DNA from: Lytechinus pictus
Taxonomy: Eukaryota
NCBI RefSeq assembly: GCF_037042905.1
Contig: NC_087251.1
Span: 33,482,001 to 33,546,000, forward strand
Reading direction: 5' to 3'
DNA: 64,000 nt
Every line of letters starts with the position of its first letter. The first letter of the stretch is position 1. The position numbers and the translations under genes were made by a program. Shown in pieces: positions 2,567 to 30,776 of the stretch. Below the pieces are notes generated by a model that did not search any database, had not been told where the DNA came from, and was given only the letters and a program-made list of their open reading frames with translations.

Positions 2567-2594
2567 TGAGTCACGCGAGACGAAATTGACGTCA
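2567..2594. promoter_or_regulatory. Adjacent consensus AP-1 and CRE sites
   Basis: TGAGTCA at 2567-2573 and TGACGTCA at 2587-2594 in a CpG-containing patch. Confidence 0.35.
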
Positions 2595-3455
2595 GTGCAA
2601 CGCCGGTCACGGAGGAACACCTAAAATTGGTCGAGACTAAGAGAAGAGGAGGAAAAATTGTGACTGAAATCCTGGCAATAAGTTGACATTTTAAAAATGT
2701 TTCGAAAAAATATTTAATATTTGGACTGGTACCTTACTGACTTCCGTGTTTTTACACTATAGCAGGGCCTATTCAGTCACCAGATGCTCACAAATAGGAT
2801 ATTTACCATATAAATCTGAGGCAAACTAAAATCATTGAAAGCTTGTCTATTGCAGAGGGTTGGGGAAAGGATATGTACATGGAACACTCCTGTATTCTTG
2901 TTTTAAGATGCTTTTTATTTAATATCTTCATAGCTAAAGGCAACAAGCACTATCACATTACTCGGTATACAGAGCAATGCCAAAATTTGAATACTTTCAC
3001 TAAATATGTAGCATGGTCATTCAATGGCAGTTTCTCTTTGAAAAATGTTCAGGTTCTCATAAATTCAAATCTATCATCTATCATATCATCTATCATGATA
3101 TTCATTCAACATAAATCCGGTAATTCAGTAACTTGATATTTACTTGTAGGTAATATGGCTTCTTATGTTTGGGTATTCAAATTATCTTGTCATTCGATCA
3201 AATATAAAATGCTCACAAGTTCTTGAATTGTGCTGTGTTGTCTTAAGGAATGAAAAATATAGGTCTTTCTGGGAAAATCATGAAATCATATGGCCTTGGT
3301 GATTTTTTTTAGTAATGGAATCCTTATTGGGGTCTGGAGGTTTCTGAAGGGTCAAATGAATCCATTCGCATTCTCCACCAAATACATAGGATATGAGTGT
3401 GCTCTTGGTCTTTGGTCTTTCATCAGGTAGACCAGCCAACCAGTCAGCATCATAC

Positions 3456-3524
3456 CTTCAGGCCACGCCCTCCATGTTTGGGGAAAATATCACATCTTGG
3501 GGAAGAAAATAGGTTTCTTGCAGC
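3456..3524 (-). other. Candidate 69-nt exon
   Basis: Acceptor gttgttgtttgtctttcag|G and donor GAAG|gtatga. It is open only in phase 0; in the DBD frame (phase 1) it reads RCKKPIFFPKM-stop. Confidence 0.35.
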
Positions 3525-5338
3525 CTGAAAGACAAACAACAACATGGAAGAGTGACCCTGCTGCCCCCTGTGGCTGACATCGGCACAGCTTCTTGAGCTG
3601 TTTATGAGGAACCGGTGGTGACAACAGAGCCACAGTCCCCAGGCTGCTTCACCTAGCCTAGGTCAGACCACCATTCCTTGGGCAGACAGACCTATGGGTA
3701 TGGATGATGGGTGGTTTCATCAAGCCCCAAAGCTACCAAGGAACAGCAGCAGACTGGTAGGTGAGTCAGGGGAGAGTACTGATGGGATTCGCAGAGTGTT
3801 GCCACAGTTAGTATATTCAACTGAAGAAGTATTTCAAAAAACAACAACTCCATCCTATTAATATGTGATAACTAAACTAGAGAGATACAACATTTGTTTT
3901 AATTAAACATATCTCATGATTAATTCTCTGATTTCATCAACTACTTCAATTTCATAAAATCAAATTTTTTTACCACATTTTATAAAGGTGTGGGAGAAAA
4001 TATAATAACTTTTTCTGGGCATATTTACATAAATATTTCAAAACCACCAAATAGTACAGAATAAGGAAACAGACTACTAGCCTATTTATTAAAATATTCT
4101 TCTGTCATTCATTATAATGATTATCAGATTATCAAGGCACTAGTAATTGGAAAATATATTGAAATACTTCTCTTGGCACAAAGAACAATAAACAAATTAA
4201 CACTATATCTTAAAATTAAAATAATCTGTTGGACTATACTATCCTAAAATATATTTTAATCTCTTAAAAACACCATTAACAAGCAGTACAACATTTCCCA
4301 GTTGATCACTCTCTCCCCTTTTCCTCCAGTCCCAAACAAAGACATTTTTGTTGGGTTCTTGAGGTGTTGACACATCTCCCGAGACCTGTCGCCTTGAACT
4401 ATGTATGGTGTGGCTCTACCAGAAACAAAACAAATGGGAAATAAGCATGAGGGGGCAAAAAAAACCCTGGTTGCTAGCAGAGTTATCAATCAAGCCTGGA
4501 GTCAGTCATGGTCATTTACTCTACCACTGTTTAATTGTCGTAAACATATTCTGGGGGTCGTTGCCCCCTTCGTTACCAAGGGAGGGTGCTTTATAACCGC
4601 ACATGACTTTAACTCTAAGAACGCCAAACCAGCTACATATCTTGGGATAATATGTGTAAAAGAATATGCATGAGGAAATGTAGGCCTACATAAATGCCCC
4701 ATTACAGATAAAACATAAAGGTCACATGATATATTAAACATGTATTCCGGATATACATTTTTTATGTTAGTATGTAGGGCTAGATCTGCAAAGAATCTGT
4801 TATGCCATGAATTCTAATGTCCAAGTATAGAACAAAGGTTGCAAAGATATGATATCTTATTATATCATATTAAATCTAGACAATTTGCCCTGATCACACT
4901 ACATCTATTTTGTTATAAATTGGGTTTTAGTGTTCCACAAATAATTTTACTCGACAAATACTAAACATGTATTCCTGGTATATTTTGTCATTTTCTGGAC
5001 AGCAATGCCTTTCATCGTGAAGCATATGGAATGCACGTGCTGAGATTGAATTGAGCTGCATACATTATATGGTGCTTCTACCACATGTGGGTTTTTTTTA
5101 TATACCCTCCTTCACATGTAACGATCCCTATGGCAAACATAGTATTGATCTGTTTTTACCAAAATAGACATTCAAAAACTGACTAGTGTGCTGTGAGAGG
5201 GTACAGGGTAAAGGAAAGATGAAGCAGAAAGACAAAAGGGTAGCCAGGGATAAATTGAAAAGATGAGTGGTACAAAATGCATAGATGGGAAGCAGGGGGG
5301 GAGGCATAGCAGAAGCAAATGAGCGGTTTAGACATAAT

Positions 5339-5641
5339 GGCCTGTATTCTGAACTCGGGTTTAAATTAAACCCTGGTTTAAAGTTGTGGTTTAACTATGG
5401 AGAGCCGATTGGAGCACAAATCTCTTACAGTACACATTCAATTTATTATTAGCTCCTGTGACACCCAAATTGTTCATAATTGTATGGGAATAATAACTGA
5501 AGCATTCTTCTTCATTATGATAGCAAAAGGAAACCAAATTAATATACAATATAAGCATGATTTTTTAATTTTTGGCTTCCTATAAATTTTGCACAGAGTT
5601 AGACCGTGGTCTAAGTTCAATCTGACTTCAGAACACGGGCC
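5339..5641 (+). mobile_element. ~300-bp MITE, GGCC-ended TIRs, family copy 2
   Basis: TIRs GGCCTGTATTCTGAA / TTCAGAACACGGGCC (13/15 match), with imperfect subterminal inverted repeats continuing inward. Confidence 0.85.
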
Positions 5642-7051
5642 TATGGAAAGAGAGCTTAGAGGAGAGAGAGAGAGAGATCATGAGAAAAGGTACATCTGAG
5701 TAATTAAATGTAAGCCCCTATATAATGAAATGTCATTCAAATAATCTTATTTGAGCATATATAATGTATATATTTTATAAGATCTTAAAGTCACTTTATT
5801 TCTTGTCAATGGTGTACAAAAAAGGACTGGCCAACAGCCCCCCTCCCCCCTAGATGAAGTCCTTGATGTCCCACTGGCACAGAGCGATCAGTGCATTTAC
5901 TTTGGCCTACCACAGCTTTGTTTTATAAAACAGCAAAGTATTAAAAAATGATATCTTACAATGCATAGTAAGTATTCTTCCACTATATACAGCAACAAGA
6001 GTGTCAAATACCTCCACATTGACAGATAGAAAAAACATTGGAAATGAATTCAGTCCAATGGGGGAAATTGGGAAAAATATAATGCCCAACACTGCACACA
6101 TGAAATGGAATCTCATTTGAGCGGACAGGTTATTAATGAACAGATACTATTTGACATATACGTCTTGTTATATCTCGCCAAGCCCTAGCTCACACAAAGA
6201 GTACTATCAATTACTATTATAACCCCCGTCTTGACTGTAGCTGAGGTCTGTCACAGACCCTGCAAGAAATATATATGCCCTTCAACAGAATAGGAGAGAG
6301 ACTTACAAAAAAGATAAACAATCTGGTCATGTCAACCAATAATATGACAATATAAATGAGAAAAATTCCTCATCCCCGAACCCTGCCAGGTTACAAGCAC
6401 TTTTCCTCCCTCGGCAGACAGGCGGTTGTGGCAGAGAGCCCCGTTAGTCGTCGTCGTACATGCATGCCTGCCCTGTACACGCAGGCAGAGAGGAGATGGG
6501 TGGAGGGAGGAATACATCATAAAATATGACTTGTACACCGAGCAGAAGATTCTTCTTGGCTGTTCTCAACAACTGCGGACAACCTCCCGACATAAGAAAT
6601 CAAGTAACCTCTTAGAAAAGTGCAAACATTGGTATGCAATGGACCCCATTTTTTCCCTCCTTGCCTCTCCCTTCCTCGTCTCTCTCGCTCTTGTATTTTT
6701 CTTGAAGCATGAACTGCTAGCCACAGCTAACAATTTTGATATCTTGCATGCACGATAGAGTCCGGTCGTGATTGCAGCCGGTATGACACGCCGTGGCAAG
6801 CATACTCAAGCACCATGGTGAAGCAAGTGTAACTATATTAGTCAGTGACAGGGATTCATGATCATCATCTTCATAATCATCATTATCATCAACTGAACAG
6901 TCCATCTGAATTTTATCAACACTGAACAGATTCAAAAAAATATTTCAAGTTTACCACTTCTCCAGCTCAAATTAAGAACCACTTATACCCAGTATTTCAA
7001 ATAAAAGATTTATTCCATTTCATTCTTATTTATAAGTGTATAAAGCTTTAA

Positions 7052-7356
7052 AGGAGAGCGGATTGATCGACACTGCATGTTGTCTGTCATTGCCTGTGTG
7101 TTATAAATAGCAGTCTTGAAATACACCTTTCGAGATATTTGTTACCGACAGATAATAAATTAGCCTATAACGTTTTTGGAGGAAAGTTATCTGCTTCTCT
7201 ACTTGGTAACATCACCATTGCAGTAAATCATTCAAACGGGTCTATAATACGAGACTACACTGCTAAGAATGTTGAATTATGGGAAACGAACCTGGCCAGA
7301 CATGAGTACTTGAGAACTTGAGGTGGGGCTATCAAGGCCGCTGGTTTGCATGCCCT
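7052..7356. mobile_element. Degenerate TTAA-flanked non-autonomous DNA transposon (Kolobok-like)
   Basis: TTAA at 7048-7051 and 7357-7360 flank AGG...CCT termini; the TIR match is weak beyond that. Confidence 0.4.
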
Positions 7357-9344
7357 TTAAATTCTTTGTTTTGATACACTGTCTTTTTATGGTACAAAAT
7401 TATATAACTTTGAACGACTTATCTTTTATACACTGTTTCTATACACTGTTTCTATAACACTCCACATGGTGTACCGTAAACCACATCAGCGATTGTACAT
7501 GCCACCATGCAAACCTTCAAACAACATCTGAGTTAAAATAACTTCTTAAATATGGCAATTCTATTTTTTTTTCAAGGAAATAAATCAATTTTGAACAGTA
7601 CTGTCTCTTTTATATTTCACATGTTTTCTCAAAATTTCTAAGCTTATAAATGAATAATATTTTCATGGAAAATGAATACTATTTTCATGGAAAATGAAAG
7701 TAATTCTCCCTGACCAACTTTCCTTCCGTCTTCACTTCCTACCATCAGGAACAATTCTTGAATGCCTCCGCACAAAACGGCTGCTGATGAAATGGTGTTA
7801 TTATGATTATTAAAAGAATTAAACCGTAAACCAGGAAGAAGAAGCAATTCATAGGGTCCTGTATTAGAAGGATAATTCCTTTCTTAAGAAATTTGACCCA
7901 AAAAGGAGACATCCTGCTGAACCTTGTGTCGCCATATCATTGATTTTGCTGGTAGATTTGTTGGAGTTGACACTACTTCAGGAAGTCTCAACCCAGACAA
8001 TAGTCTTGCTTGCTTGAATAAGTTTGATACCCATATAAGAATGTTGAGAATTGGCATTTTGAAAAGAACACTAATTAAATCTCTTGAAATTTAGTTTAAT
8101 ATTTATAGGGTAAATTACTTTATTTCATAATGCACTGTATGATATTCAACCAAAAAATTGTCAATTACTATTTTGTTTTTTTACTATTTTGTTGTATAGA
8201 TGTATAAGGCAATAAAAAAGCCCACAACAATTTCTCCATTGCAAATGTCATGAACAAAGGGGAATATTGCCATCCCTGTTTATCCAATCATACCTGCAAA
8301 CATACAACAAAACAAACAAAAATTATCCATAGCTGTACAGTTTGGCCAATGCTACATGTTTCACCCCTATCTCATATCACTGCACATTGGGCCTACTATT
8401 TAAATGTTCAGTAAAGTGTGGTTGAGTTCTTCCTGTTTATGCCATTAACTAGTATCAAAACTGATTTATCAAAGGGAAAAAATACAAACAGATTTTTTGC
8501 TAATAGGCATGGCACAAATGCATCGAGTTCACTTGATCCAAAACGGCATCATGAAAATATGATAAGTGTTAACTAAATTCAACTGATGTGCAATTCAACT
8601 TGCTATGCCCGTGGCTGCTACGGGATATATCTTAGAACAGTACCCCCCCCCATATACATGGCCATCTTTGACACAAACACATATTGGAGGGGTCGTTTCT
8701 CCTTTACGTGTATCCACTGCAAAATCACTGCCATCTTCTTTTGACGAAGGAGGGCGGGGTGGCTTGCCTCCACATGACATACGATTACAGTGCACTGGGC
8801 TGAAATCTCCACTATCCTTAAATTGCTAAATAAAGATCTACAGGTAGGGATTGATTGAGTGTAGTACGCACACCGCGCTGTCATTCAATGCCCCATGTAA
8901 CGGGAACATTAGCATCGCTGGCAGCAAGAAAACCGCCAGCCTTGCTCCTCAACTGCCCCAGTTAAATACATTAATATAAATGACTCTCTCTTACATGCTA
9001 GTGAACCCTCCCCTGCACTTTTAGTCAAGAATCTTATCCCTGAGAAGTTTTTGACCCTTTTTTTTCTTTGGTTTTTCTATTTGTGGTCTGTTGTTTCTCT
9101 TTCTATAAGCGTTGATATTTTGTTTGAATTTTTAATTTCATGAACAAAATAGATAACAATATTTTGTTCAAAGTGATAGACAATCTGCTCATCATTTTTT
9201 TACATCCACTCAATGTGATTTCTTCATTCAGTTGAAACAAAAACCAGTTCCAATGGAAGCTGATAACATAGTCTCAAATTAGTCAAATATGCTAATGTTT
9301 TTCCTCCTCCTCATATTGACAATCTTCATTAATTATCGTCAACA

Positions 9345-9592
9345 TTACACCATCATCAAGATCATCACCATCATCAAAATCATCATCACCATCACCACCA
9401 CCACAATCATCATCATAATTACCATCACCATCATTATCATTATCATTACCATCACCATTATCATCATTATCATCATCATCATCATCATCATAATTACCAT
9501 TACCATCATTATCATCATCATCATCACTACTATCATATTCATCATCATCATCTTCGTCGTCATTACCATCACCCGCCTCTTCCTCTTCATCA
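9345..9592 (+). repeat. Imperfect (ATC/ACC/ATT)n trinucleotide microsatellite
   Basis: Directly visible; it explains the poly-I, poly-D and poly-M ORFs at 9289-9693. Confidence 0.97.
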
Positions 9593-11239
9593 CAAACTAT
9601 CATTTCTCTATGAGCGATCTCTTCTCTCTGAAACCTTTTACAAACTCACCTGAAAACACGTCACACATGTACCAGTCTTTTATGACGCAATAAACCATCA
9701 ATTCTTGAGCAAATCAGCTCGTAATACTCTTTTAATGATCATTAAATTGGCAACACTTACACCACAAGTGGCTGCTCAAATCCACTGATTAATTAGAATC
9801 ATGGAGCCCCTGCCAACTTTTTTTTCCTCCTTCAATGAAACAGTCAAACGTGTTCTTTTCCACAATAATCAGAAGACTTCAATGTCACGTCTTCCCTATT
9901 GCTCTATTACTCAACGCTATAAAGATTCCACTTTCATATTAGAATTAACACTTTACCTGTGCTATTGTACTTTTATTTTATGACCAGTGTATGGTAGCTT
10001 TAAAAACAAGTCAACACAGAGACAGACCAGTGACTCTTATGAGGGAATTTGTCGACAAAGAATAGAAAGGGAAAGGGGAAAACAAAAGACGGTTACAGAT
10101 TGTCAAGGTATGGGGAAAGAAGCAAAGAAAGAAGAGAGTTAATACATGAAAAAAATAGACATCAGAAAGAAAGATGGAGAAAGATTTAATTTGAATGAGA
10201 GAAAGAAATTATCATGACTGAGACAAGAGCAAAAGTAATATATAAAATGCAATCCATCACAGAATGAAACTATGTGTTTGGTAATAAAATGCTGGAGTTT
10301 AAAAAAAAGGCGGATTAATTCCATTCAAGATGTTAATGTTAATGAAAGTACAGGCAGTCTATAATAAATACCTATCTATATCTAGGGCAAACAGCCTTTA
10401 CAAAGCAACCACAATGTATCGCCTGATTGGACCTTTAAAGGCAAAGAGGTTGTTGCCATGGTGATGGATGAGTGATGAGGCAAGGAAGACATGAAGGAGG
10501 ATGGGAGCAGGATGGAAATTGACTCATTACCATGATGGATAATTGTCGTTAATCTGGCTGTCGTGAGATTCCGACAGATTTGAGGGGAGGCGTTCGTTTT
10601 CGCTTCGTGTTTTCAACTCCTTCCAAAATCACCCGCAGGGCGCATTTGGAGAAGGCGTGGAGCGACTTGACGAGAACTGATTACAATTAATCAATTACTC
10701 AGCTTCAGGGATAACAATGATGATCGCATGTGAAGCAACCTGATTGAGTATATCCTCAAAGGCGTAATGTACTTATCAATTCGCATTCATCATTTCTAGG
10801 ACAAAAACAATTCACATATTTTCTGGTATTTCTTTATAGCATGATGGCAATTGCTGCATTCTTTATATACCTAAGCAAAGGTTTGAGGATGCAACATCCA
10901 CTTATTACCTTCATATTACAATATTTTAAAGGAGAGAAATAATCATAATTTCAAACACTATCAATATCTCTAATGAATTCTAAAATACAATAGGCAAATC
11001 ATTATTCACATCCTTTACTGATGATGAAATTCTCAAAATATCTCCCAATTCCTGTAATTTTACCGGAATGAATACAAATGACAACTACAGAAGTTTTCAT
11101 GCAATCAAAAGAGTTGGAATCACGACTTCACAGTTACAAAATCTTACATGGAGAAGATCACTTTGTGATCCTTTTCTCATTCCCCCATGTAGAAATTCCT
11201 TTTACATTGTCAAGGAAACAGGTTGAGAATTTGGTGAAA

Positions 11240-11259
11240 TTGACCTGGATCAAGGTCAA
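11240..11259. promoter_or_regulatory. Putative nuclear-receptor response element, everted repeat ER6
   Basis: TGACCT-ggatca-AGGTCA with two perfect half-sites; it includes TCAAGGTCA. Confidence 0.4.
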
Positions 11260-11500
11260 GTCTGGAGAAACATTCCTGTGGTGGTTGGCTGTGAAGTCTG
11301 GTCTACAACTGGAGGGGTCATTAACTAGTCATTTAGATGTGACAGAACCTAGTCAGTAGTCACACAATTGAAACAGATTCCACACTAATAAAAACTATTT
11401 CAGTATTTTCCATGAGATATCATTGGTCGATTTGAAGTCCGTTTCATGGGTGTGGCTGTGGCATTAGGGAGGGCAGCAGAGAACCATTTTCTTATATCTG

Positions 11501-11670
11501 GGGGCCGTTTCATAGCTGTTCGTAAGTTCAGAGCGACTTTAAGAACGACTGGTGAACCTTTCCTACGCGCTAACCCATCGACAATGGTGTATAGCATTTA
11601 CCAAAAGAAAGTATCACCAGTCGTTCTTAAAGTCACTCTTATTTTACGAACAGCTTTATGAAACACCCAC
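11501..11670. mobile_element. Palindromic ~170-bp MITE (Harbinger-like)
   Basis: Arms gtttcatagctgttcgtaag..agagcgactttaagaacgactggtga and tcaccagtcgttcttaaagtcactct..ttacgaacagctttatgaaac are reverse complements over ~55 bp. Flanks are CTG/CAG. Confidence 0.88.
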
Positions 11671-14453
11671 CAGGAGTGTAACAGAACAGACACTTTAAGA
11701 AGAACTGCTACTCCGTTCAATGCTACAGGTGTCTAATGCAATGTTTTTTTTTTAATGAACACAAAAGATCTTGGAAGTGAAATTCTACACAGATGTTGGA
11801 AGGAACAATCGTTGGAATTGAAGGCATGGTTTTCAAATATTGGCTCAGATTTTCACCATTAAAAAATAACTTATGATGGATATTAAAATTTGAGACATAC
11901 AAATTGCTTTTTAAAAACTATGATTGAAAGGCTTACATCATTTCAAGGTAACAATTTCATTTTTTTTTTAAATCTAATGAGTACATAGCAACAGCTGTAA
12001 CAAGAACCAGAAGTTTATGTGGAGTAATATATGATATCACTTTCAAATAGTGACTGATTTTTTAGTTCTCAAACATAATTGTAGTCCCCTCACCACACTA
12101 TTTTCAAGAATCAGAATGAATTCATTTTCTAATAAAAAAGGTTATCCAACGAGTATATACCACTACAAGCATTTACCAAAAATGAAAATATGTTTGCATC
12201 GATTTCACATATTTATCGTCACTCAATATAGATTTGAATGTACCCATAAAAGCTTCAAAATTATGAAGGAAATTTCATTATATGTAGTCAAGCTTTATGC
12301 ATATGGAAGGGTCATGGTCTACAGGAGAACTACTCAAAAACTTTACCAATTTGGCAACAATACTATATTTTCATTATCCATGCAGTTTCGTTCTATTGAT
12401 TGAAAATGCAAATTGTGGGGGCAGTGTTGGGGGGGGGGGTGTCGACAAAATCTGGATCAGCCATACTCCTGTTGCTACAGTAACCAAATATGTTTGCCAC
12501 AGATGTTTCAAATATCACTTGAAAGCGCAGGTCCACCAGTCAACATCAAGTACATCTACTGAACTACGACCTTTCTCCATACCAACCAAGCTCAGGGAGA
12601 CTGAGACCAAAAAAAATGCAATATGGGGAAAAGTGGAGAGAGGGAATGATATAGATTTGTCCCCCCTCCAAAAGAAACTGGGGTGCCTTAGATTAAAGAT
12701 GATAGGAGGAAACAGACAACATGACATAAATTGGTAAAATATTGACGTTCATGCAGCATCTTCAATTATAGGAAGCCCACTATCCCCGTATCTGTGGGCA
12801 GTGTAGCATTGATTATTGCACGATTTCAGCCTGTTCGGTGGATCCGCCTTCTTCGATTGCAATTATATACCCTTGTATTGCAGCAGCATGCAGGCCAACC
12901 AATATGCATGGCTTTCTGCTCAATCATGAAATTGAGAATGCACCTATGTCCTTTCTGTGTACTATCTATCTATCTCTCTCTCTGTTTCTTCCTTGTAACT
13001 ATTTTTATTTTATCTGTCACCATAAGTTCCCCTTCACATTCTGCATTTATCCCTACTTCATGTATGAACATATTTGTTTCTCATCTTTACAGAATATTTT
13101 AGTCCATCACTAAATTCTGTTATTTTTTTACATCTCCTCGTCCCCCTCCGTTTTTCTATCTCTTAAGTCCATGCACCTGCATGTCTTTCCCACACTTCTT
13201 TTCTTCAAAATAGGTAAAATGTACGTTATCGTCTTGTCAATATTCAACGATTTATATATTTAAATTTCTTTCTTCTAAACAGCAAGTTGGAACAAACATT
13301 TACCTTTTTTGCCTGCATTAGCTTTATGCTACACACCACACTATGAACACTTGAAAACATACCCCTCCCCTTTTTCCTCCCCCCCTCTCCTATGCCCCTC
13401 TTCCTCTATCTTTACCCCCCCCCCTCTCCTTCTGCATCTCACTTTCTCTATTATTCAAATGCCATGTGCAACTCTTTTATTTTTTTCATTGGCTCAATTT
13501 CACAAGCTTTCTCTATTGCCTCTGGTGTGTTTTTGCAGACAGCGAATATATGCAGAATGCACTCCGTTTGAGCTCTGCCGCAGTGTATTTGTTTGTGCAG
13601 CCCCGAATTAAAATAAACCCCTCTTTTCTTATAGTTATAGTTTCTTTTTCATCTTCTTCTCCTATTTCTCTGAATGCAATATGGTTTAGATAAACAATGT
13701 GCACCACGAGCTAGTGCAGTGTTGATTAAATTCTACATTATTTTGATTTTTCTTGATGTTGGTTATTCCTTTTTGCAATTCAATGAGCTCATGTTGGCAG
13801 TGATAGGCCCATAGTTTGTTGTCGTCAACAAACTTGCCCTTTTGGTTCATCCAAAGCAGTTCATTCTACAACTAGATTTATTCAAATTGCTTATAGCTGG
13901 TTGGTCATCACTGCTTTCATTTCAACTAACTGCATGCTATTTAAAAACCAACTAATTATTCTTTTTTTTTCCTTTTCAAGGAGAACCAAGACTAAAATGG
14001 AATTTCACATATAACCAGAGCAGACTCACTTCCTGGTAAAATGACAGGCAACAATTCATTGCCTAACATGGCAGAATATGAACATTGTGACTCATACCGT
14101 TTTCGTAATTTTCCTTGTAAACTTCCTCATATATAGGATTTTTTCTTTCCAACTTTCTGATAAGAATACTTCACATTCCATCTTTTATTTACAAACCTCA
14201 AACACCTAATGTGAATTAGAAGTGCCCCTATCTTCAGTAAGTGACGCAGTTTGTGGCAAATGTGCAAACTTGCAATCGGGGGAAAATATTTCAGAAGTAT
14301 TTTCGTGTTCTAGGATAGTCTTCTCATTTCTAATGGGTTTGCTCCAGTTGGTCTACTCCTACTGATAAGTGGACATACATTGTCAGCTATTGATATTTGG
14401 CCTTATTGCTGTTTAGTCTTGGCACCAATTAACCTGATAACCACTACAACTAG

Positions 14454-14948
14454 TATGCTTTTCACACTGCATTTCCTTAACCCCATACTATCCTTAACCC
14501 CGGACTATCCTTAACCCCATACTATCTTTTTTTGATTCACACTGTCTTTCTTAACCCCGTACTATTGCTTAGCCGGGGTTAACGCCTTAAACCCGGGCAA
14601 TCACACAGCTCATAAATATTGATGATTTTACCATACAGAGCGCGATTAACGTGTAATTTCAACTTCTGTGATTGGCTAATGCTTAGCCCCGCTTTTGCTT
14701 AGCCCTGTTTCGTTTCACACTGCATCTCTTAGCACCGCAATTGTGGTGCTAGCACCACAATAAGCCGGCTAACCCTGCTTTTTTGCAGGGCCAGATAGTA
14801 CCGTACTATTTACCGTGCTAGCCCACTTTGCTAAAACGTAGTGTGAAAACGAAGTGGGCTAAGCTTAACCCCGGGAAATTGGTGGGGCTAAGACCCCCCC
14901 CCCTTAGCCCCACCAATTTAGGACAAAAAGTGCAGTGTGAAAAGCATA
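14454..14948. mobile_element. 495-bp MITE with perfect 18-bp TIRs (PIF/Harbinger-like)
   Basis: TIRs TATGCTTTTCACACTGCA (14454-14471) / TGCAGTGTGAAAAGCATA (14931-14948), flanked by TAG/TAA. The interior has CTTA(A/G)CCC repeats. Confidence 0.92.
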
Positions 14949-15214
14949 TAAGAGTCATTCGGTCTAATCATAACATGGTCTAAATGATTCATTTTTCTAC
15001 TTCATCGAATAATAGGCTGATATGGGTATCTTCCAATAGGATAGATCGAGCAGAATTTCACCACATTCATATTAGTCAAATGGGCATTTGTGAGCTGGTA
15101 ATAAGGCAAAATAGTTAATAGACTAACCTTAGCCCCCCCCCCCCTTATAGTTAAGACCACTGTACACCTTACGCTTGGTCTGTGACCAATTGCGATTCGA
15201 ATATCCAAGTCCTT

Positions 15215-15293
15215 TGGAAGCGCATAGAGACATTATTCATAATGTGATATGCGCTATACAAGAACTGTAGGCCTATATTATTATCATTATTAA
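15215..15293 (+). mobile_element. 3' tail of an L2/CR1-type LINE or partner SINE
   Basis: Stem AGCGCATA...TATGCGCT followed by ATACAAGAA and a (TTA)n-like tail, the usual L2-clade 3' end layout. Confidence 0.65.
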
Positions 15294-15664
15294 TATTGAG
15301 ACATGGATCATATTACTGTGCAAGGTTCTAAACCTGTGACAATGCTACAATCCATGTTAGAATAAAAGCAAATTGAATATCTAGTCATAGTGACATCATA
15401 GCAATCTTTCGATTGGCTACGATTTGAAACCAATTTGGCTTTTACTCCAAAATAAAGGCCTGCAATCAACCAAATTAATAGATCATGATTTTTGCAGCAA
15501 ATTTAAACCTCGAAAAAGAAGATACTCTTTATTCACATTTTCAGAAAATAAGCAAAGTGTGATTTGTTCCAAATTTTATTGTGGACCAGTCGTAAGGTGT
15601 GCGGAGGTCTTGAGGAATTAGCAAAAACGTTATGCCGACGTAAAAACCCTTTAGCTAGACTTAC

Positions 15665-15909
15665 GTTCAGGCTTCATGCCTACATCAAGGCATTTCTGGA
15701 GTCTGCAGGCCGGGCAATGCCGCCTGGTGTATAGGTCCATTACACAGTTGCCATTGGCTTCACATGTAAATTTGGCCTTGCTCTTGATCTTACGACCGAA
15801 GAAACTTTTACAGCTCTCGCACGAGACCACCGTGTAGTGCAGGCCGCTTGCCTTGTCGCCACACACCAGGCATTTCTGCTTGGAGTAGTCAACCGACATC
15901 TTCTCGAAC
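15665..15909 (-). CDS. Internal coding exon of a nuclear hormone receptor: complete C4 double zinc-finger DNA-binding domain, NR1 subfamily, NR1H (FXR/LXR/EcR)-like
   Basis: Translation FEKMSVDYSKQKCLVCGDKASGLHYTVVSCESCKSFFGRKIKSKAKFTCEANGNCVMDLYTRRHCPACRLQKCLDVGMKPE has the exact C-x2-C-x13-C-x2-C-x15-C-x5-C-x9-C-x2-C-x4-C-x3-GM spacing. The second finger (GNCVMDLYTRR) resembles FXR GNCVMDMYMRR. The minus-strand acceptor is gtcttctctattttcatccag|G and the donor is GAAC|gtaagt (phase 1, just after GMxxE). A possible start ATG lies at 15899-15897. Confidence 0.96.
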
Positions 15910-17469
15910 CTGGATGAAAATAGAGAAGACAAAACAAACGAGGTTGGTTAATATGAATATAATTAGTTGTGGAAAATAAGGATACACATATTTGATTCAT
16001 AGGCAAGGCTGTAATGAACTCCTCCAATTTAGTAAAACACATACATTGAGAGGATAGAAATATAAGGGGACTATCATCGATATCACAATTGGCTTAAAGA
16101 AAGAGATAATTTAAGATGTGTACTGCAAAACCAATGTCAAGTTCATGATTTACCTGCATCTACATATAAATTCATGTCTTACAACTCATTTAGTGTAAAA
16201 TTGGTTTAATTTCTTCAACGAAACTTGTGATTACAGAAGAGGAAGAAATGTCGGATTGATAGAGTTAAAGAATACATGTATTCAGTTTAATTATCTTATG
16301 AATAGTTCTAATCTATAACTGACAAAATCAAAGGAGATAGACAAATATGAATAACCACAATATTCACTCCTGAGACGCAAGGGGGCATTGACTCAAATCC
16401 TTCTAATTCTGTTAAGGTCCTTATGGCACAAAAGTAGATGGCTATACTCAGACAGTGTAGGTTATGAACCTTTTACACATCACAAGCCACTCATGGGCCA
16501 AAGACGGAGAAAAAAAAGAAAGAATAATGTCACACCAGTCCATTCCTCCATCCCCAAATCTTTAGATGGGCATTTTCGGCATTTCTATTTCATCAAATTA
16601 AAGCCCAATCTAGCTTAATACACTGGTCAGGAAGTCCAGATCTCCCGCTGCATTTGCTGTTTTTAAAAGCTACATCAATACAGTCTCCTTCCAAAATATG
16701 AGCAGTGGGTTGGGGGAGGAAAAGAAAAGTAGAGCAATAAATTTCTTGTTAGAGTGGATGTCTGCAGGTAAGTGCACGCCATGGGTTTGACGGGTAGACT
16801 CCATGATGTGGACGGAGATAAGTAATGTACTCGTCTTTTTCTGGATATGCTTCTGTATGACGTGTCTGAATGTGTCTTGAATGTTGATCACATTTTAATG
16901 CAGATGCATACATTATCAGTACCATTATATCTTATATTTGCTGCAAATACATTCCCATGGAAAAATCTTGAGATGGGCTGACAGAACTGCGAGGTTCTGA
17001 ATTCATAATGTACTCCCAAAATTTACACCCTTCTACCTATTTTCATTTTTTTTAATGGTAAATACTATAAAATTTCCCCAGATTTTTGTTTCTAATTCTC
17101 AAATCTTGAAGTCTTTGTCTTCGGTGAAGACTGTTTCTTTCCATTCTTCATCCTCATTCACATCTCCCTTTTTATCTCCTTTATGTTGTCCATTCAAATT
17201 CATACCTCACTCCAAAAAAGAATGCATTATTAATCTTTCACTTTGACCCTCCACCTTCCTCCAGTCATTTTATCAGCTCTCTCCTAGACATAATATGCTG
17301 TGCAAACCCTTCACTCGAGTAAAGGGTCTGAATTGCAGCCTACTCATGACTTGTGTCCTGACGTCCCGAATTGAAACAGCAAGTTTTGTATGTGCTAGTC
17401 TTTGCGTGGAGACACACTTGTTGATCAAAGTTTCAATCAGGGTCTGTGCCTGCAGACTATCCTAGACCT

Positions 17470-17950
17470 TCCCCACTCCCATTCCTCTTCTTCAAACCCC
17501 TCTCCTCAGTACCCATTACCCCTCTCCCACTCCCCATCCTTTCAACACCCTCACCTCACCCCCCATTACCACTCTCCATCTCCTCAAGCCTCTTATTAAT
17601 GCCCCTCTCCCACTCTCCATCCTCTTCCTAACACCCCTTTCCCTAGCCCCGCTCTTCCCATTCCCCTCTCCCCATTACCCCTCTCCCACTCCCCATCCTC
17701 TTAACACCCCTCTTCTTTGCCCTGATTACCACTCTCCATCTCCCCCATCATTTTAAATACCCTTTGCCTTAGCTCCTATTACCCCTCTCCCACTCCCCAT
17801 CCTCCTCTGAGCACCCCACTCCCACTCCCATCTTGTTCTTAACACCCCTTTCCTCAGCCCCCTCCCCCCCTCTCACCATTCTCCCACTCCCAATCCTCTT
17901 CTCAACACCCCTCTCCTTCCCCTCTTCCTCCCCCTCTATTACCCCCATTT
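17470..17950 (+). repeat. C-rich degenerate minisatellite
   Basis: Recurrent ATTACCCCTCTCCCACTCCCCATCCTC...AACACCCC units; the + strand is nearly devoid of G. Confidence 0.85.
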
Positions 17951-19389
17951 CCTGTATGCCTGCATAATGCTGCTGCAGTGATCATATCCAAATGTCATAT
18001 TGACAAACGAATGATTCTTGTTTTGGTCAGGAACACACGATTGTAACCTTTCGCTTTTAACCGAGAGCAGCTTCGCATCTGCTTTGTGCCGATATATATA
18101 ACAAGTAGCGTGTTTAGCGGTCTTGTATTGAAAAGGAAAGTAAAATGTCTCTCTCTTGGCTAGCACTCAACAATACACGACCATCATCTTACCAACACGC
18201 TAGCCTATACAGTTTGTTCTCTCATTTCATAATTTCAATGTATACCCAAATCAGTCAGTGTATTTGGCAATTAGAATCAGTCTGATTAATTTCAAGTTCA
18301 AGAGAACAATTTTTATTGTTAGGCTAATTATCTGATAGTTCGTGAGACTTATAACAAGCATTTATAAATATGACATTCAATCAACAGGTCTCTTTGATCT
18401 TAGAAAGCAGACTACTGTTACTAACAAAGCGACTAAAGGACCAATGGCTTTCAATCCTATCTGAGGGGCTTGATATTTTGACCTATGACCACATTCACAG
18501 TTATGGGTCACATAGGCAACACAGAATATGCAAACTATGGTGGTACCTAGGATCATGTTTGGCTTTCTAAGCAGATCTGCAGGGCAATATTTTGTGTCAA
18601 ATTCTTGTGAAACCCAAGCCGATAAAATCCATCTTGACTGTTACTCAAATGCAATGTAGACATAACCATCTATTGTATTGCACCTGCAATAATATACCCC
18701 ATAATGGACTTGCAAAGACATAGAAAAAGAAAATGAAGTGAAAAAATCTGTTATTGTAGACTTTGGCACCTAATTGCGAAATACAATCTGGTTGAAAGTC
18801 CATTAATAAGCAGGCTGAGGTTGCTACTATTGGAGTACGGTGTCTTTAAAAGAACAGTTGGGGAAAGAAAACAGAAGGGTGACAAAACCAAAGGTTAGGG
18901 ATTGGAAGAATGCCGGTGTGAGGCTGAATGTTTGTCAATGAAGATTTCCCAGCAATCCTTCCTACACAAACGCACAATGTTGCTTACCAAATGAACATGC
19001 ACAACAGACCTGAATTATCTAAATGTAAGGCAAAAATATGAGAAGAACATTAAAAGACGCTAAGAAAAACATCCCTTTGCCCACAAGATTAGATTCCATT
19101 CAGCTGGTACTTTATGAACACGTGAAATGCAGAACAGAGGTGTGAAATGAGGGCTAACCACTTTTTAAAGTGCCAACTGGCAGTCAAAAAAAAAAGAATA
19201 AAGAGAAAAGAGGGAAGAAGATAGAAAGGGAATTTGTTGATATGGCCTACTGTGTCAAAAACTGCAACAAAAGAGAGCCTATTTTACACATGGATGGATG
19301 AATAAACCGAGTTTTCTTTTCTTTGGAAGCGAGCGAGCTGTGCGGTGCTATCGTCTGCCTCGGATTGCATTGAGAGAAGCTCTACTCAC

Positions 19390-19413
19390 GCAAGTAGAGC
19401 ATGTATAGTCACA
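19390..19413 (-). other. Candidate 24-nt microexon (or 3' end of a 5' exon) of the nuclear receptor gene
   Basis: Minus strand reads tgtttctttctctacag|TGTGACTATACATGCTCTACTTGC|gtgagt: strong acceptor, consensus donor, length divisible by 3. Confidence 0.4.
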
Positions 19414-19891
19414 CTGTAGAGAAAGAAACACTTGCAGACAAGCGCTAGCAACCCTGCATGCACGCCAACCAAGCAATGTTATTCTTTGGTCACAGAAGTC
19501 ATGGCACTTTATTCGCTGCAGATCAAGAAAGCGGAATCGAAGACATGATTCCGGATGATAGATCCTCGATCTTGGTGCATATGTTGCTTCATTCTTGATG
19601 AGGTATTGACGTTCAGTCAATGTTTGATCATGTGTATTTTTGAAGAACAACATGCAAGGCTCAAAGTCGAGCGGGAGGGGGAAAGGCAGGCAAAGCGGGT
19701 CGGGGGAAGTCAGTGGGGATGGAGGAGGGTGAGGGGGGATGATGTGATGCTTGCAGCTAAGACAGCAGACTTTCATAGCGATACAGGAATGGATATTGGG
19801 TCTACTGGAAAGCAAAACCAGCCAGCCAAGGTAGGGGAATCAAAGATGGCAGCTGCCCAGTGGGGCACGACCATAATTGTACGGTGACACG

Positions 19892-19905
19892 GCGCCCCCT
19901 GCTGT
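19892..19905 (-). promoter_or_regulatory. CTCF-like motif
   Basis: Minus strand ACAGCAGGGGGCGC, one mismatch to CCAGCAGGGGGCGC. Confidence 0.35.
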
Positions 19906-22900
19906 TGAGACGATACTCAATGACACGGACACCCCCAAAACTCCCGCTCACGGGGTTTATGCACTTTAGGGATATTCCAGCAAAGTAAATATGTATTTAG
20001 AGAAAAAAAAAATCACGCATGAGCTATGCCCGTCATGCCCCTGTGTGACAGAAAGAGAGAAGATTGTGTGAGACCACACCGGTCCTGGGAGAGAGAATAA
20101 AAACCCTACAATGTCAGAATGTCATCAAGTTTTTTTCTTTTGAATGGTTATCAAATGGATGAAATATCTGCAGGAGAATAGTTGATGACATGCAGATGTT
20201 ATTACTATTGATCAATTAGAAGGTGCTTCACAGTCAGGGGTACACATTCATCATAAGTAGAAAGGTAATGATGTCAGACTTGAAGAAAAAATGTTGCAGC
20301 ACTACGTAACAACCACCAGTCATCATAGGTCTATCTCATGAACTTTTCTCAACAACTAGGCTACATGTTTGTTTGCATCATGTATAAATGTAGGCCTGTA
20401 CACAAATGATTTTTTATACAAAATTCTAGTATCCTTTCTCAATAACCTTAAATAGCGGGAAGGGGATAAAAACAATATCGGAAAATGGTTGAATCAACCT
20501 TGTCTTGAACACAGTTTTCACCAAAGATCAATTCTCCGAACAGTACCAATAGGCCTACATACAAGAATGGTCAATGAAGTCATTACAAATGCCAGATTTG
20601 GTAAAGGGGAAAGAGAGATAGTTCAAATTCCCACAATGATCCATACTTTGATTAAAAGTATAATCAGATGAAATTCATTTCATAATTAAATGGGTATAAA
20701 AGACAGAGATATCTATCTCTGGCTATTAATTCATCAGGCCTATCCTATTAACAATCAAGATTAGGAGTTTAATAGTCTGGTCAAACAACTTCACCGACTT
20801 CATTCCCCCCAAACGATGAAAAAAATGGCTCTTTGGAGTTCTCTGCACCCTATAAATACTGTTGTCATGGACACCTATTTAGAAGGGAAATAATATATTT
20901 AGGGGAGATTATTGTTTGTGAGTAACCTTCTGGCAACAAAAGAAACTAGGTCTCCACTACTCAAATGAAAGATGTGGAATGCCACGGAATTGAATAGATT
21001 AAAAAGAAGAGAAGGCAACGTCTATGCAGCTAGTTACTTATCAAAACATTACATATAATAAAATCAAATCCACCTCTTTAGGGGAAAGCTTGAGAGGTGA
21101 AAATTACAGAATGAAAAAAAAAGAGCCCTTGAAATGAGGCAGGGGGAAAATGGCGAGGGAGGGTACAATGGAACGAAGGAAAGGAAAAAAATTGCTACGG
21201 GGCATTTACAGCTTAGAAGGGCCAAGCTTTTTTTTTCTGGGTCTTTTGAAAGAGTTTGTGAGAGAGAGGGAGAATGGGGAGAAGGAGAGAGGGTAAAAGG
21301 GGTAAAGTATCTATGGAGGGAATTAAAAACTATAATACAATGACTTGTTATTGTTGTTTAGAAAAACATACTTTTATTCCAAGTTGCAACCCTGAGAGAG
21401 AAAGCAGGCTGTCAAAACAACAATCTGAATCAAGGACTCAAAAGTGCAACACCTTTTCATTCTTCAAAACCCCCTTCCTTCTCTCAAATCAGAAACTTGA
21501 ATTTAAAAAAAATCCAATCCTTTGCACCACTGCAAGGCTTGAATGAAGTACACTTTACCTTTAAAAGGTTTTCACCTTGCTTTTCATACTTTCTTTTATA
21601 ACACACACTAATTCATCAAAGTCAAAGACAAGTTCCTCTTAAAGTTATCCAACACTACACACAGACCGTTTGGAATATCGTCCTAAACTTGAATTCCCCC
21701 ATCCCCAAAAGTAAATTTTAAATAAAATAAGTTTTTGTACGGGGAATAGTAGGTACTGACATGACTTAGTAATGCTATTCTCAAAGCGGTGAGCTAGTTT
21801 CATGATAAATGTATAACTAAAGCATTTCATTTATTTATTCATTTATTTATTTTTAGCTTTGTTTCCCTTCCTGCTTTCTTCAAAGAAAGCAGGATGTAGA
21901 AATCCTCCCTGAGATCTTTCCTTTCTCACGCCATTTGAATCTAATCATTTCATTAACAAAGCAAAGCAGTTTCTGAAACACTACAGAAACTAATACACCA
22001 GTCACACCAACGATACCAAGCCAAGCTATTACATTACTATCTTTAGCATATCAACAATTGTTTTTGAGCTGGTTATACCAGTGTGACTGAGGCACAACAT
22101 ATCCCTTTTCTCCCTTTCACTTACCGTTATCCAATGATGATTATGAATAGTGAATGCAAAATGAATGCAGTTTAATAGGACTTAAAACGCAATGGACGGA
22201 ACCCATTATGCAAAGTACAAGAGGGATACAAATTAGAAGCAGTGTGTAACCGTCATGAGGATTGGAAATTCAAATCAAGATGTAATTGCAGTCTTTATGA
22301 AAATATAAAGGCCATGATCTTGGGAATTAAAACCAAATTAAGAGCTATCAGGACAATTTATGGAATGAATTACATTTTGTCAACAAATAATACACTCTGT
22401 TGTCCATCTGGAAAACTCTAATTGCGTAATTTGCCACCACATGAAAATCAGAGATTTTAAGCCCCCTTGAGGTTGTTTGAGCCATCAAACATTAGCCGTC
22501 TTTACCCATAGTCCCACACCTAATCTATCATGTTGGTGAAAAAAAATAAAGCGACTGAAAGAAAACTGTACTTTTCTTTTAGAAATCAGATTTCTGTGTT
22601 CTAAGACTCCCTTTGACAAATTGCTCTGCCTCTCAATAAGACTCTTTAATAATTCATTTTAATGTTGATTTAATTTTGAGATTCTCAATCATTATAATTT
22701 AATTTCTTATTCATTCACAACTCCATCAGAAATTTCCACTGGTGCGAGAGATCTCAAGATTTGAAATAGTACATATGAGTTTAATAAATTGAAAAATATA
22801 AAAACTTCTACAAACAGATCACTCACATGGAAAAAACTGCATTCAAAAGGTAAAAAAAAACATGAGGCAAAAAATATCAAGTCATCATTTTACACATCAT

Positions 22901-23155
22901 ATTATTTCCTACCTTTTCTGATCCATGTAAACTTGATCTTCAATAAAATATGGCATGACACACTTTTCACTTTTGCTATTTCTACATATTTTTTTTTGAA
23001 GGGGGGAGGTGGATGGGATATCACCAATATGCAGAAATAAAAACGGAATACAACTCTATTTGAATTCCTTGAAAACTTCATACCAATTTTGTTCTTTTAT
23101 TTGAAGAAACTTAAAAGGGGGGAAAGAAGCTCTCCAAAAATACTTGTATTTTCAC

Positions 23156-23316
23156 TGTCTGCTCTCAAAGTCGCTGAGTGTCTCATTCAAAGAGCAAGTC
23201 GACGAGGATCTAGTCTTTGCCGATGCCGCAGACAACGTAGGACCATGTACATCCCTGTCCTCGTTCAGGCGAGACATCTTCAGCCCACGGCTTGCATAAT
23301 TGTTCCAATATTTCAT
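23156..23316 (-). other. Candidate upstream (A/B-domain) exon of the nuclear receptor
   Basis: Ser-rich frame MSRLNEDRDVHGPTLSAASAKTRSSSTCSLNETLSDFESR ends at a weak donor CA|gtgaaa. This donor is phase 2, compatible with the DBD exon start. No homology evidence. Confidence 0.2.
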
Positions 23317-26300
23317 AAAGTTCAACCCACTTACATAAATGAACCCTCTGTTTCTGGCCACCTAGGTGGATTAACGCTGGATGATATTTGTTACCCTAAT
23401 ACTCATCATTGCCATCGATTCGTCGTGGCTTATTGATCGGTTCTCGTTATTTCAGCTTGATTACATAACCCAAGAGATCGCTATATTTAATTGGTCTAGG
23501 GAGAGGACGAGTGCCTGGAGTTATGAGGGTTGTACGGGTATATAATCACGTCTCTCGATAACTAGTGCAGTCTACATTTTCCATTAATGATTATATAACA
23601 CAAGAGGTCTAATTTGCAAGATAAACACAGTCTATTGATTGTATGCGTATGACACAAAACATTGTTTTACTAATCATGGTAAATGACTTCTTTCTCTTCA
23701 CTCGCATTGTTTCAATTAGAAACAGTGGTATTGTATACAAATAGAGTAAAAGAGAAGGGGTGGGTAGATATGAAAACGCAATTATGATTTTCTGTTTCAC
23801 AACACGGGAACACTTTAAATAATGTAGTTTGCAGATGAAAAAGAGGAAAAACAGATATTTTTCAATCAGATTCAGGCAAAATCATCATTTAAACCGTATA
23901 ACAGAGAGACTGGCACATCTAATGCATCAATCGTGTATTTCTGATGTACAGTATATATGAAGATCATCACGGGTGCGAAGGACCAAACACACACTGTAGG
24001 TGCCACGTGGGGGGGGGGGGGGTAGGGCACAAAAAGGAATCAAACTTTTTAACTACAGTTTGATTAACAACCAAAATAGCCGTAGATATCAGAAGGAAAA
24101 GATAGATATGTATACTACATTGTATGAGCCTGATCTACTCTTGATGTGAACTTAGTATATAGCAAACAAACATTTTTTTTTCAAATTACATTCAGCTTAA
24201 ATTTACTCTGATCATCCAGATTTCTTTAAGACTCAATGAACAATTTAGGCAAAAATTAAATATCAATTAATTAATTAATTTATTTATTATTATTATATAT
24301 ATATATTTTTTTTTTTTGGGGGGGGTTCTAATCTCTTTTGAGATGTTAATGCACATAGTTTATACATTCCCTCTCCTCCTTCCTTCCACCTCTCTCCCAA
24401 TCTCTCTCTCTCTCTGATTTTCATCTTATTTTTTTACCCCACCTGCCCCTGGCATGGTTCCTTGGAGTCATTCTTTCTTCACTTCTGTAAAACCATAGGG
24501 TAACACAAGAATACATTGTCTCTTAAGGGAGGCAGGCTAAGTGTCCTCATCACTTTCATGCTCAACTTGTTTATCGCATACCACATGGAAAATGTAAAAA
24601 AATTCCTCACAGACTTCAACCAAGTTTGATGGTTTTAAACTGAAATATTATTACCTCAGAAGAGATCATTGAGATTAAAAGTATACAGGAAAAAAAAGCG
24701 GAAGAATGTATTGACGCTGAAAAAAATGCAACAAACACTGCCATGCCTGCACCAGCGGTCAAACGAGAGGCAAGCATGAGGGGAAAATGGGCAAATTATG
24801 AACGAAACTGGGGTCTTCTAAAAGCTTATCCACGGGGCAATTACATTAGATGATACCTTTTATGGAGATGCTATCGATGTTAGTCCATCATTTTATCAAT
24901 CTGGAAATCTATATATTGGCAATTTCCTTTGGGCGTAACAAGTAAATTTCGACAGGCGAAGGCAGTGCTCCCTAAATCTACAGGCCTCCAGCAAAATTTG
25001 ATTCATTAGATAGGAGCTGCCACGCACAATACAGAGGCAAAGTGGGTCTGTGCAGTCCGATGGTAGATTGTGGGTGGTGTTCGTGGGAGGGAGAATGGTG
25101 CAGCACTTTTTAAACTTTAAGAAATGTTGTAAGAGCATGATTAAGTTACATTACAGAAAGGTTTTTGAGGTGGTGGTAGGAATACGAGAGAGAGGTATGG
25201 AGTGGTCAAAGAAAAAAAAATTATTGTGTTGTTACAGTTATGGTGGAACAGGGTGCATATAAGAATAGAAGTATGAAGAATAATTAAGAAATGGCTGATG
25301 TGGAAAGGATTGAAAGAAAAGGGTAGATAGACAAGCAAAAATAAGACAGAAAAAAGGAGAGAGAGATATAAAGAGAAAGATTTTTAATAAATGATGGTCC
25401 CTTTAACTTTAATATTTGTAGTATATTCAAACAGATGAGGAATCATGATCAATCAAACAGTTTTAAAAGTATCATAAAACTTCATCAGGCATGGTAATTC
25501 CCTTTCACAAAACAAAAATTATCATTTCAGAATCAGTCACTATTATGTTATTATATGATAGGTCATGGCTGAAATGATAAGCGTGGTTTATCTTATTACT
25601 GCTACAAAAATGAATGGGGAGCCACACAAGTTGGTGATACCATAAAATTGGTCAGTACAACAGAAGTAGACCCGCCATGAAATAATCTGATTGGTCATAA
25701 CAATCTTACATTGATTCAATGGTAATGTATAGTCGAGATAGAAAACATCAAAGTTTTTATGGAAAAACATCATGAAGCTGTTCAGCTTCATTTTTATCAA
25801 TATTTATTTCATTTCCTAGAAAAATTAATTGAATTTACAACCTAGCTGTATTTCAAAAAAGATGCTGCCAAATTAGAAAGGTACAGATAAAGTCAGGATG
25901 AAAGGTAGAATTTCAAATATGTTCTTTACAGATAGACAACTTATATAAGAACATAAGATTAATAGAAAATAAAGTATTACAGAAGTTCAAAACACCAATT
26001 GCTTTGATTTTGAGCTCCCTTACATCAATTGAGTTGTCTTGTTTGTCAAATAGAAGTAAAAGCTGAAAAATTACATTTCACGCTGAGATAAACTTTGGTG
26101 GCTGGAGACTTGGCTGGAGGGGAAGGAGAAAAATAAGGTGGTTGAGAAATGAATGATTAGGTTTACGCAATTAGTATAAAAGCCATTAGCGCCAGCATGT
26201 GTGATTTAGTATTCTCCCGTTTCATGAATCCCACATGAGCTCCTCCATTGTACAATCGCAGCCATCAATCTCAAGAATTCCCTACATTGAGTCAAACCAT

Positions 26301-27039
26301 GCGAATCAGACGCAAAAGACTGGCTCAATCCTCATCTATAATTTGGGATGCTTGTCAGCGACGTGGCGAAAAAATAACTCAGCGACGCGCCCCGGACGAG
26401 AGAGCAAACAAAACGCGAGGGGAGCAAGGGCAGACGTCGGAGACCGCAGCTCAAAACGGAGGGCATTATGCGTGGGGTTTGGCAAGGTTGCGTCTCCGCA
26501 GAGAGGTGGTTAAGAGTTGCCAAGCATGGATCATTAATTTACATCTAAAATGTCATTTCGCACCTCCAAATATTTCCTTATTTTCAGCTTTCCTTGTTCC
26601 TTCCATTTTCCTGCCCCTTGTGGATGCCGACCACGTAATGGGGAACAAGAGATAGGGAGAGATTTAGAATGCAAGTAAGAGCACGGATGTAGTACAATGC
26701 ACTATTTTTTTTTGCATTGGGCAGTGAATGGCTGGACTTGGTTATCAATAATGTATGATGTGGATGCAAGGTGCTATCCATATCCATTCACTATCAATAT
26801 CCAATCACTCTGTCCTCAATCTTAGGTGTATCCAGCTTCAAATTATCTTTAGTCTTTTTTTCTCTCTTTCTCTTTCTAATTTTACAACTCTTATGTAAAT
26901 CTGCTACTTATCATTAATGCACACTTTTCCCATTTCCTCCTATTATCAAACACAATTTCTACTCTTATACCTCTGTCTACCACTCCCGCTCTCTCACTAC
27001 TTCAATATCTTCTAGCTATCACTGTGTGTATGCACCTTT

Positions 27040-27405
27040 CTTGATATATCTCTCTCTTATTCTTACTTTTCACAATTCTTCATTTATCCCCATCTTATTC
27101 CAATGTCTTCTCTTATCATGAGTAACATTCTCCTCCTGGCAAACCCCTTGATATATCTTCCCCCTATTCTTTTTTTTTCACAATTCTTTCTCTTCCCCAC
27201 CTCATTCCAACGTCTTCTCTTCTGTGTAACATTCTCCTCCTGGCAAACTCCTTGATATATCTTCCTCCTATTCTTTTTTTTTCACAATTCTTCCTCATTC
27301 TTTACCTTCTCATTCCCACAACTTCTCTTACTATGTGAAGGATTCTCCTCTTGGCACGTTCCTTGAAATATCTTCCTCCTATTCTTCTTATTCTCAATTC
27401 TTCTC
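27040..27405 (+). repeat. Tandem repeat, ~105-110-bp unit, ~3.5 copies
   Basis: CTTGATATATCTTC...TATTC...TTCACAATTCTT recurs near 27040, 27147, 27251 and 27362; ATTCTCCTCCTGGCA also recurs. Confidence 0.88.
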
Positions 27406-30400: not shown

Positions 30401-30776
30401 GTTCTTGATAGAAGAAAAAGCGAGAGTTGAAGAGAGCTCGACCAAGATGGATGTTTCAAATCAAGATCGAGCCTGTAACACAAAGCTCAGTATTGATCGT
30501 AGAATGTCTTTACAAATGATTGCATTGACTACAATGTACAATCAATCGTGAAACTCAAGCATACGATCAAACGCTAACCTTTGTGTTGCAGGACCCTTGT
30601 CTTATCAAAGCAGTCATGAAAGAAAAGGGGAACTTGAATGGTAATGCTACAAGCATTTCCTGCAAGACATCTGCAGATAAGTGTCTCTCAAGAAATGATA
30701 TGCTTCGGCCCAACAAGATTGAGATTAATACATTGCACAAGACATTTCCTGTAGCAGCTTCCTTCTCTACCTCTTT

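Follow-up and report, generated by a model that had tools for sequence, protein, structure and literature searches.

The recognition helix of NR1 nuclear receptors hardly varies. It reads EGCKGFFRR in the NR1H receptors (LXR, FXR and EcR) and in the NR1I receptors (VDR, PXR and CAR), and EGCKGFFRR plus S, T or A makes up 208 of the helix matches in the protein set that we collected, a set biased by our searches. The base-contact residues of NR1J receptors (HR96 and DAF-12) read ESCKAFFR (PMC2774871, PMC4388693). Among sea urchin genes, FXR/LXR, NR1H6a, NR1H6b (SPU_015456) and NR1H6c have four separate entries in a supplementary table, and the same report describes the function of Nr1h6b as not clearly defined and reports that non-coding elements close to nr1h6b and nr1h6c have been under positive selection in a heat-tolerant Echinometra (PMC9557091). 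Nr1h6b is also one of 230 regulatory genes selected for analysis among those present at more than 300 transcripts per embryo at 24–72 h (PMC11315938).

The locus that we describe encodes ESCKSFFGR in place of EGCKGFFRR; a preliminary description, made from the DNA alone, had rightly called this recognition helix atypical. Six of the eight NR1J residues are matched, with Ser replacing Ala and Gly replacing Arg.

The window contains the DNA-binding domain exon of Nr1h6b

The window, a 64,000-nucleotide stretch of Lytechinus pictus contig NC_087251.1, contains the following features:

15665..15909, minus strand: DNA-binding domain (DBD) exon of Nr1h6b, 245 bases, encoding the whole DBD, with a phase 2 acceptor and a phase 1 donor
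15789..15821, minus strand: recognition helix CESCKSFFGRK, with the Gly codon GGT at 15797–15795 in the ER-alpha K210 position
15884..15906, minus strand: match to the S. purpuratus Nr1h6b forward primer, with 3 mismatches, each a synonymous change at a third codon position
62986..63035, minus strand: upstream coding exon, ATG plus 16 codons, with a phase 2 GT donor
15910..62985, minus strand: intron between the two coding exons, 47,076 bases
1..15664, minus strand: start of the downstream intron, which exceeds 15.6 kb

The DBD is encoded by a single open exon (15909–15665) with 0 stop codons, which lies between a polypyrimidine/AG acceptor at 15911–15910 and a GTAAGT donor at 15664–15659 on the minus strand. 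Both zinc fingers are encoded with normal cysteine spacing, and the domain scores 100.4 bits (E 7.5e-29) against Pfam zf-C4, for which the cut-off is 21.1 bits. The intact Zn-binding cysteines and their spacing, the lack of stops and the helix CESCKSFFGRK noticed earlier are thus all seen in the exon. The helix aligns without gaps to EcR, FXR and LRH-1, putting Gly in the place of the first basic residue of FF[RK]R.

Translation of the upstream exon (63035–62986) gives the N-terminus of S. purpuratus XP_782721.2 without a difference, and the frame is kept across the join to the DBD exon; the 98 residues encoded by both exons are identical to the S. purpuratus protein. When three full-length orthologues were compared with the window by tblastn, the DBD exon alone was matched, and a scan for the next exon was also negative; the hinge and ligand-binding domain (LBD) exons fall outside the window. 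A search of the whole window against Rfam gave 0 matches.

On these comparisons the exon is the orthologue of S. purpuratus Nr1h6b (SPU_015456; WHL22.771234.1; XP_782721.2/XP_030854495.1), whose protein records carry the automatic name ‘oxysterols receptor LXR-beta’; sea urchin Fxr (SPU_011348) is a distinct gene. An initial assignment to the Nr1m genes was dropped after the Nr1h6b primer match; primers for sea urchin Nr1m3 match no protein that we collected. The Nr1h6b primers come from supplementary file 5 of PMC11315938. The forward primer gave 0 matches in 100 shuffles, and the reverse primer was placed neither in the window nor in any collected protein. Both Nr1h6c primers translate to matches in protein P0156 and both Fxr primers to matches in P0170. 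The clade of Nr1h6b orthologues, hereafter group A, has a support of 100/99 in the LG+C20 tree described below.

The 17-residue N-terminal peptide (62986–63035, minus) is nearly constant across sea urchins, starfish, sea cucumber and feather star. Such constancy is not usual in the A/B region of a receptor, and the peptide may form a short interaction helix. Within the long intron, 40262–40339 and 39590–39622 (minus) show a match of ~81% to the N-terminus of a different S. purpuratus model (P0021), and the second stretch ends at a phase 2 GT; they could represent alternative 5' exons, or else conserved non-coding sequence. A second N-terminal isoform with a PPxKRxR-like basic end is present in a sea urchin, a feather star and a sea cucumber-like record (P0022, P0011 and P0153), and the window yielded no exon for it.

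Contigs resembling spliced transcripts span the exon

Contigs from all four of the sequencing runs aligned, which were taken from 18 runs containing the sequence among 24 listed, span the DBD exon, with matching ends no more than 2 bases from the splice sites. In runs X1 and X5 the exon piece is embedded in longer contigs of 3214 and 1471 bases, respectively. This pattern is that of spliced transcripts, although the runs are only presumed to be RNA. Contigs from a second organism have two differences within the exon, both synonymous. Positions 16015–17226 have no contig cover in the four aligned runs, which we did not weigh as evidence. High-copy repeats flank the exon at 14500–15610 and 17227–17500, where hundreds of contigs map in each run.

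Both L. pictus RefSeq models of the gene (XP_063957548.1 and XP_054759233.1; P0041 and P0148) omit the DBD. They begin with residues encoded exactly at window positions 443–345 (minus), inside the downstream intron, where the reading frame (345–443) has no Pfam match. The omission would fit a pseudo-exon with private mutations, an outcome that the preliminary description had allowed for; we reject it as having next to no chance of being correct, because the encoded protein is 100% identical to that of S. purpuratus, the upstream exon joins in frame, and the exon lies within longer contigs with breaks at its splice sites. The DBD-less models are probably an annotation error caused by the long introns, although a real DBD-less isoform starting at 345–443 is conceivable. 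The two gene models given for nr1h6b in PMC9557091 are consistent with split annotation.

Nr1h6b belongs to a clade of three paralogues

Searches with full-length orthologues recovered two paralogue groups, B and C. Group B, with the helix EGCKSFFLR[S/N], differs from group A in both domains (DBD 64–72%, LBD 37–43% identical). Group C, whose helix is mostly EGCKTFFRRN, is more distant from group A (DBD 45–62%, LBD 26–38% identical). Both groups share the second finger and the Trp extension with group A. Group B is, from the match of both primers to its member P0156, sea urchin Nr1h6c, and group C is probably Nr1h6a.

All ten representatives that were named are echinoderm or hemichordate. A 17-member profile search gave nine matches of at least 474 bits, all from these two phyla, followed by an ascidian LXR at 285 bits; the search was word-indexed with 8000 candidates scored and does not by itself prove absence outside the two phyla. 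Groups A, B and C are sister groups in every tree, and in the LG+C20 tree they form one clade (100/99) within which A and B are sisters (99/94).

Members of groups A and B lie on equal-sized contigs in Glandiceps (P0016/P0042), Antedon (P0010/P0050) and Asterias (P0014/P0047), which suggests that the two paralogues share a chromosome in these animals; in Patiria and Ptychodera the contigs are unequal.

The altered helix is fixed in echinoderms and hemichordates

An identical CESCKSFFGRK helix is present in 16 of the 17 matches to a DBD search; the seventeenth is a snail protein with 51% identity. DBD identity is 95–100% in echinoderms and other records and 85–89% in three hemichordates. The named carriers of the helix are 13 species, 10 echinoderms from four classes and 3 hemichordates, so that it is shared by sea urchins, starfish, sea cucumbers, feather stars and acorn worms; brittle stars are not represented among the named group A records. 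Helix position 9 is Gly in 31/31 group A entries and Leu in 13/13 group B entries, counting isoforms and fragments. Ten group A orthologues share the same residue in 58 of 66 DBD columns (lowest pairwise identity 88%), as compared with 44 of 66 for 9 members of the sister group B (lowest 73%).

This conservation of helix and domain argues that the Nr1h6b receptor is slow-evolving. The preliminary description had proposed a lineage-specific, fast-evolving receptor and had suggested looking for ESCKS and FFGR in orthologues. These residues are indeed common to the orthologues, and the lineage restriction agrees with the named members from three sequence searches, all of which are echinoderm or hemichordate. 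Fast evolution is contradicted: the DBD is 100% identical to that of S. purpuratus, 85–89% identical to those of hemichordates, and more conserved than the DBD of the sister paralogue. Judged from this distribution, a single helix change preceded the split of echinoderms and hemichordates and has remained fixed.

In the full-text literature we found no paper that pairs ESCKS with a nuclear receptor or cites six of the accessions; subscription surveys may discuss the helix or the clade. The gene is real, expressed and already named, and its recognition-helix variant is real, under strong constraint and apparently undescribed.

Orthologous ligand-binding domains carry RXR-heterodimer markers

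The LBD was read from orthologues outside the window, in which it is present together with AF-2 (PF00104 on P0020). Eleven of 11 group A rows of the alignment have Lys in helix 3, Arg in helix 5, His in helix 11 and Glu in AF-2, residues with pocket and coactivator roles. Glu42, Arg62 and Arg105 are likewise present in 11/11 rows, and an LXR-like helix 10 is intact. The same three residues occur in the ROR and HR3 rows, and ROR and HR3 act as monomers. Glu42, Arg62 and Arg105 are described as class II (RXR-heterodimer) markers, with Arg62 called the strictest (PMC9535869). From these residues Nr1h6b is predicted to be an RXR partner and is likely to be ligand-regulated. An AlphaFold2 model from a 4-sequence alignment was poor (mean pLDDT 51) and was left unused.

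One column of the C-terminal extension holds a Trp in 30/30 rows of the three-paralogue clade and in 0/52 other rows, and the basic stretch that follows the second finger is near-invariant in group A. Both observations would suit a receptor that works without RXR, as a monomer or homodimer on a clearly different element, and that uses the Trp-bearing extension to read flanking bases. We consider this improbable in view of the intact class II markers and LXR-like helix 10.

The glycine may alter recognition of the central half-site bases

Lysine K210 of ER-alpha, at the position taken by Gly in Nr1h6b, hydrogen-bonds the central G and T of the half-site (PMC1904296), as does K32 of AncSR1 (PMC11838366). 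The preliminary description was thus correct that the replaced basic residue contacts DNA; in ER this position reads bases (PMC1904296). Its suggestion that the receptor may recognise another half-site or bind DNA weakly is plausible. In modelling, K210 clashes with the methyl group of a thymine that replaces the central G (PMC1904296). The K210A substitution of ER-alpha reduces binding 5- to 10-fold; the consensus is still preferred, transactivation is retained, no new high-affinity site is gained, and the authors conclude that simple rules are poor predictors of such changes (PMC1904296). An AncSR1 intermediate with a Glu-Ser-Ala helix binds weakly (PMC4500092). This mutational evidence comes entirely from NR3 steroid receptors, not from NR1. 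The K210A result argues that losing the residue at this position need not, alone, shift specificity.

Group A keeps the base readers Glu, Lys and Arg and has added Lys residues two and four places after the Gly. In the mechanism that we propose, the half-site would still be read by three side chains of the helix, Glu at position 2, Lys at position 5 and Arg at position 10, whereas Gly at position 9 would neither contact the central G and T nor clash with the methyl group of a thymine. With contacts and clash gone, T at the third base (AGTTCA- or AGTGCA-like) would be the likeliest gain. The affinity lost may be offset by the two extra lysines, the basic C-terminal extension and RXR. DAF-12, which has a similar Glu-Ser helix, prefers AGTGCA/AGTTCA. 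With a little more than even confidence, we propose that Nr1h6b is a conserved echinoderm/hemichordate receptor, a predicted RXR partner and likely ligand-regulated, and that its half-sites are likely of the AGnnCA type, with a preference at the two central bases that is shifted or relaxed. Confidence is held at this level by the analogy to steroid receptors and by the K210A result, which partly opposes a shift.

The intact Glu, Lys and Arg base readers are also compatible with a helix that reads plain AGGTCA as usual, perhaps more weakly, with Ser, Ser and Gly tolerated, fixed early and locked in by neighbouring residues; NR5A receptors carry ESCKG and bind AGGTCA-related sites. The retained consensus preference and transactivation of ER-alpha K210A point the same way (PMC1904296). 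However, Gly is fixed in 13/13 named species and Leu throughout the sister group, which suggests a positive function and makes unaltered recognition rather unlikely in our view. Two changes are combined in the helix, each of which lowers affinity in steroid receptors (PMC1904296, PMC4500092), so a domain without specific DNA binding, conserved for its protein contacts and acting through tethering to other factors or sequestration of RXR, also deserves mention. It is very improbable: the remaining DNA-facing residues are all kept, basic residues have been added, and conservation extends over the whole domain.

None of these results demonstrates a new mechanism, and the gene is catalogued already. 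A helix that lost a base-reading residue and has since stayed unchanged throughout echinoderms and hemichordates offers a natural test of how NR1 specificity can move, for which two differently altered paralogues, Nr1h6c and group C, serve as comparisons.

Placement of the clade within NR1

Phylogenetic analysis started from 85 rows. Three with misaligned or truncated LBDs were dropped, and the remaining 82 gave an LG+G4 tree; removal of a further 24 near-duplicates, long branches and partial rows left 58 rows and 268 columns for a more careful LG+C20 tree. Several reference rows were labelled by reading their motifs. The LG+C20 tree places the three-paralogue clade beside NR1I plus NR1J (93/89), with NR1H on a branch of its own that does not include the clade (94/89). 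An LBD-only tree also groups the clade with NR1I/J (support 89), a DBD-only tree leaves its position unresolved, and the 82-row tree branches it to NR1H with a support of 41. In AU tests, neither union of the clade with NR1H (p 0.282) nor union with NR1I to the exclusion of NR1J (p 0.0585) is rejected. Taken together, trees and tests leave the NR1H membership implied by the name unproven, and we only lean, on this phylogenetic evidence, towards kinship with NR1I/J.

Nr1h6b resembles NR1H in the MD[LM]Y motif, the helix 11 His and the class II markers, and the closest solved structures by sequence are LXR-beta (E 6e-52) and the FXR LBD (E 4e-29); it differs from NR1H in its helix, and its group is only 24–37% identical to NR1H in the LBD. 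In the LXR, FXR and EcR rows a Trp follows the AF-2 Glu, completing the His–Trp pair of helices 11 and 12 that has a role in NR1H receptors; group A keeps the His but has Phe in 11/11 rows. The helix 12 Trp is also missing from five NR1H-like rows. A VDR-like row shares with group A the Lys four places after the Gly position, RRHCxAC and the His/Phe of helices 11 and 12, and HR96 shares the Glu-Ser of the helix. NR1I receptors differ from Nr1h6b in the helix, and LBD identity to NR1I/NR1J (22–30%) is not above that to NR1H. The second finger had been described as FXR/LXR-like; this fits its MDLY, which resembles NR1H, but not the RRHCPAC that follows, which resembles VDR and mammalian CAR. NR5A receptors (FTZ-F1, SF-1 and LRH-1) have ESCKG, the LRH-1 helix differs from that of Nr1h6b, and the best full-length matches are NR1. 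The trees contained no NR5A row, and we take the FTZ-F1 box of NR5A to be missing from Nr1h6b. Look-ups in the ESM Atlas returned generic nuclear receptor clusters alone.

S. purpuratus appears, according to a review, to have three NR1H genes and no NR1I genes (PMC4245547). A tentative and rather unlikely reading is that Nr1h6a, b and c are misnamed and constitute a separate echinoderm–hemichordate NR1 group, sister to NR1I/J, that takes the place of the VDR/PXR/CAR branch, which sea urchins are reported to lack. Each paralogue would then have fixed its own helix after duplication, and Nr1h6b would have used a half-site unlike AGGTCA since before the echinoderm/hemichordate split. Were the clade indeed sister to NR1I/J, it would also be a candidate sterol or xenobiotic sensor in animals where NR1I is reported missing (PMC4245547).

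Three amphioxus models of ~855 residues (P0052, P0054 and P0149) contain two DBDs, the first with ESCKG; they may represent tandem NR1H genes that have been fused, or else genuine forms with two DBDs.
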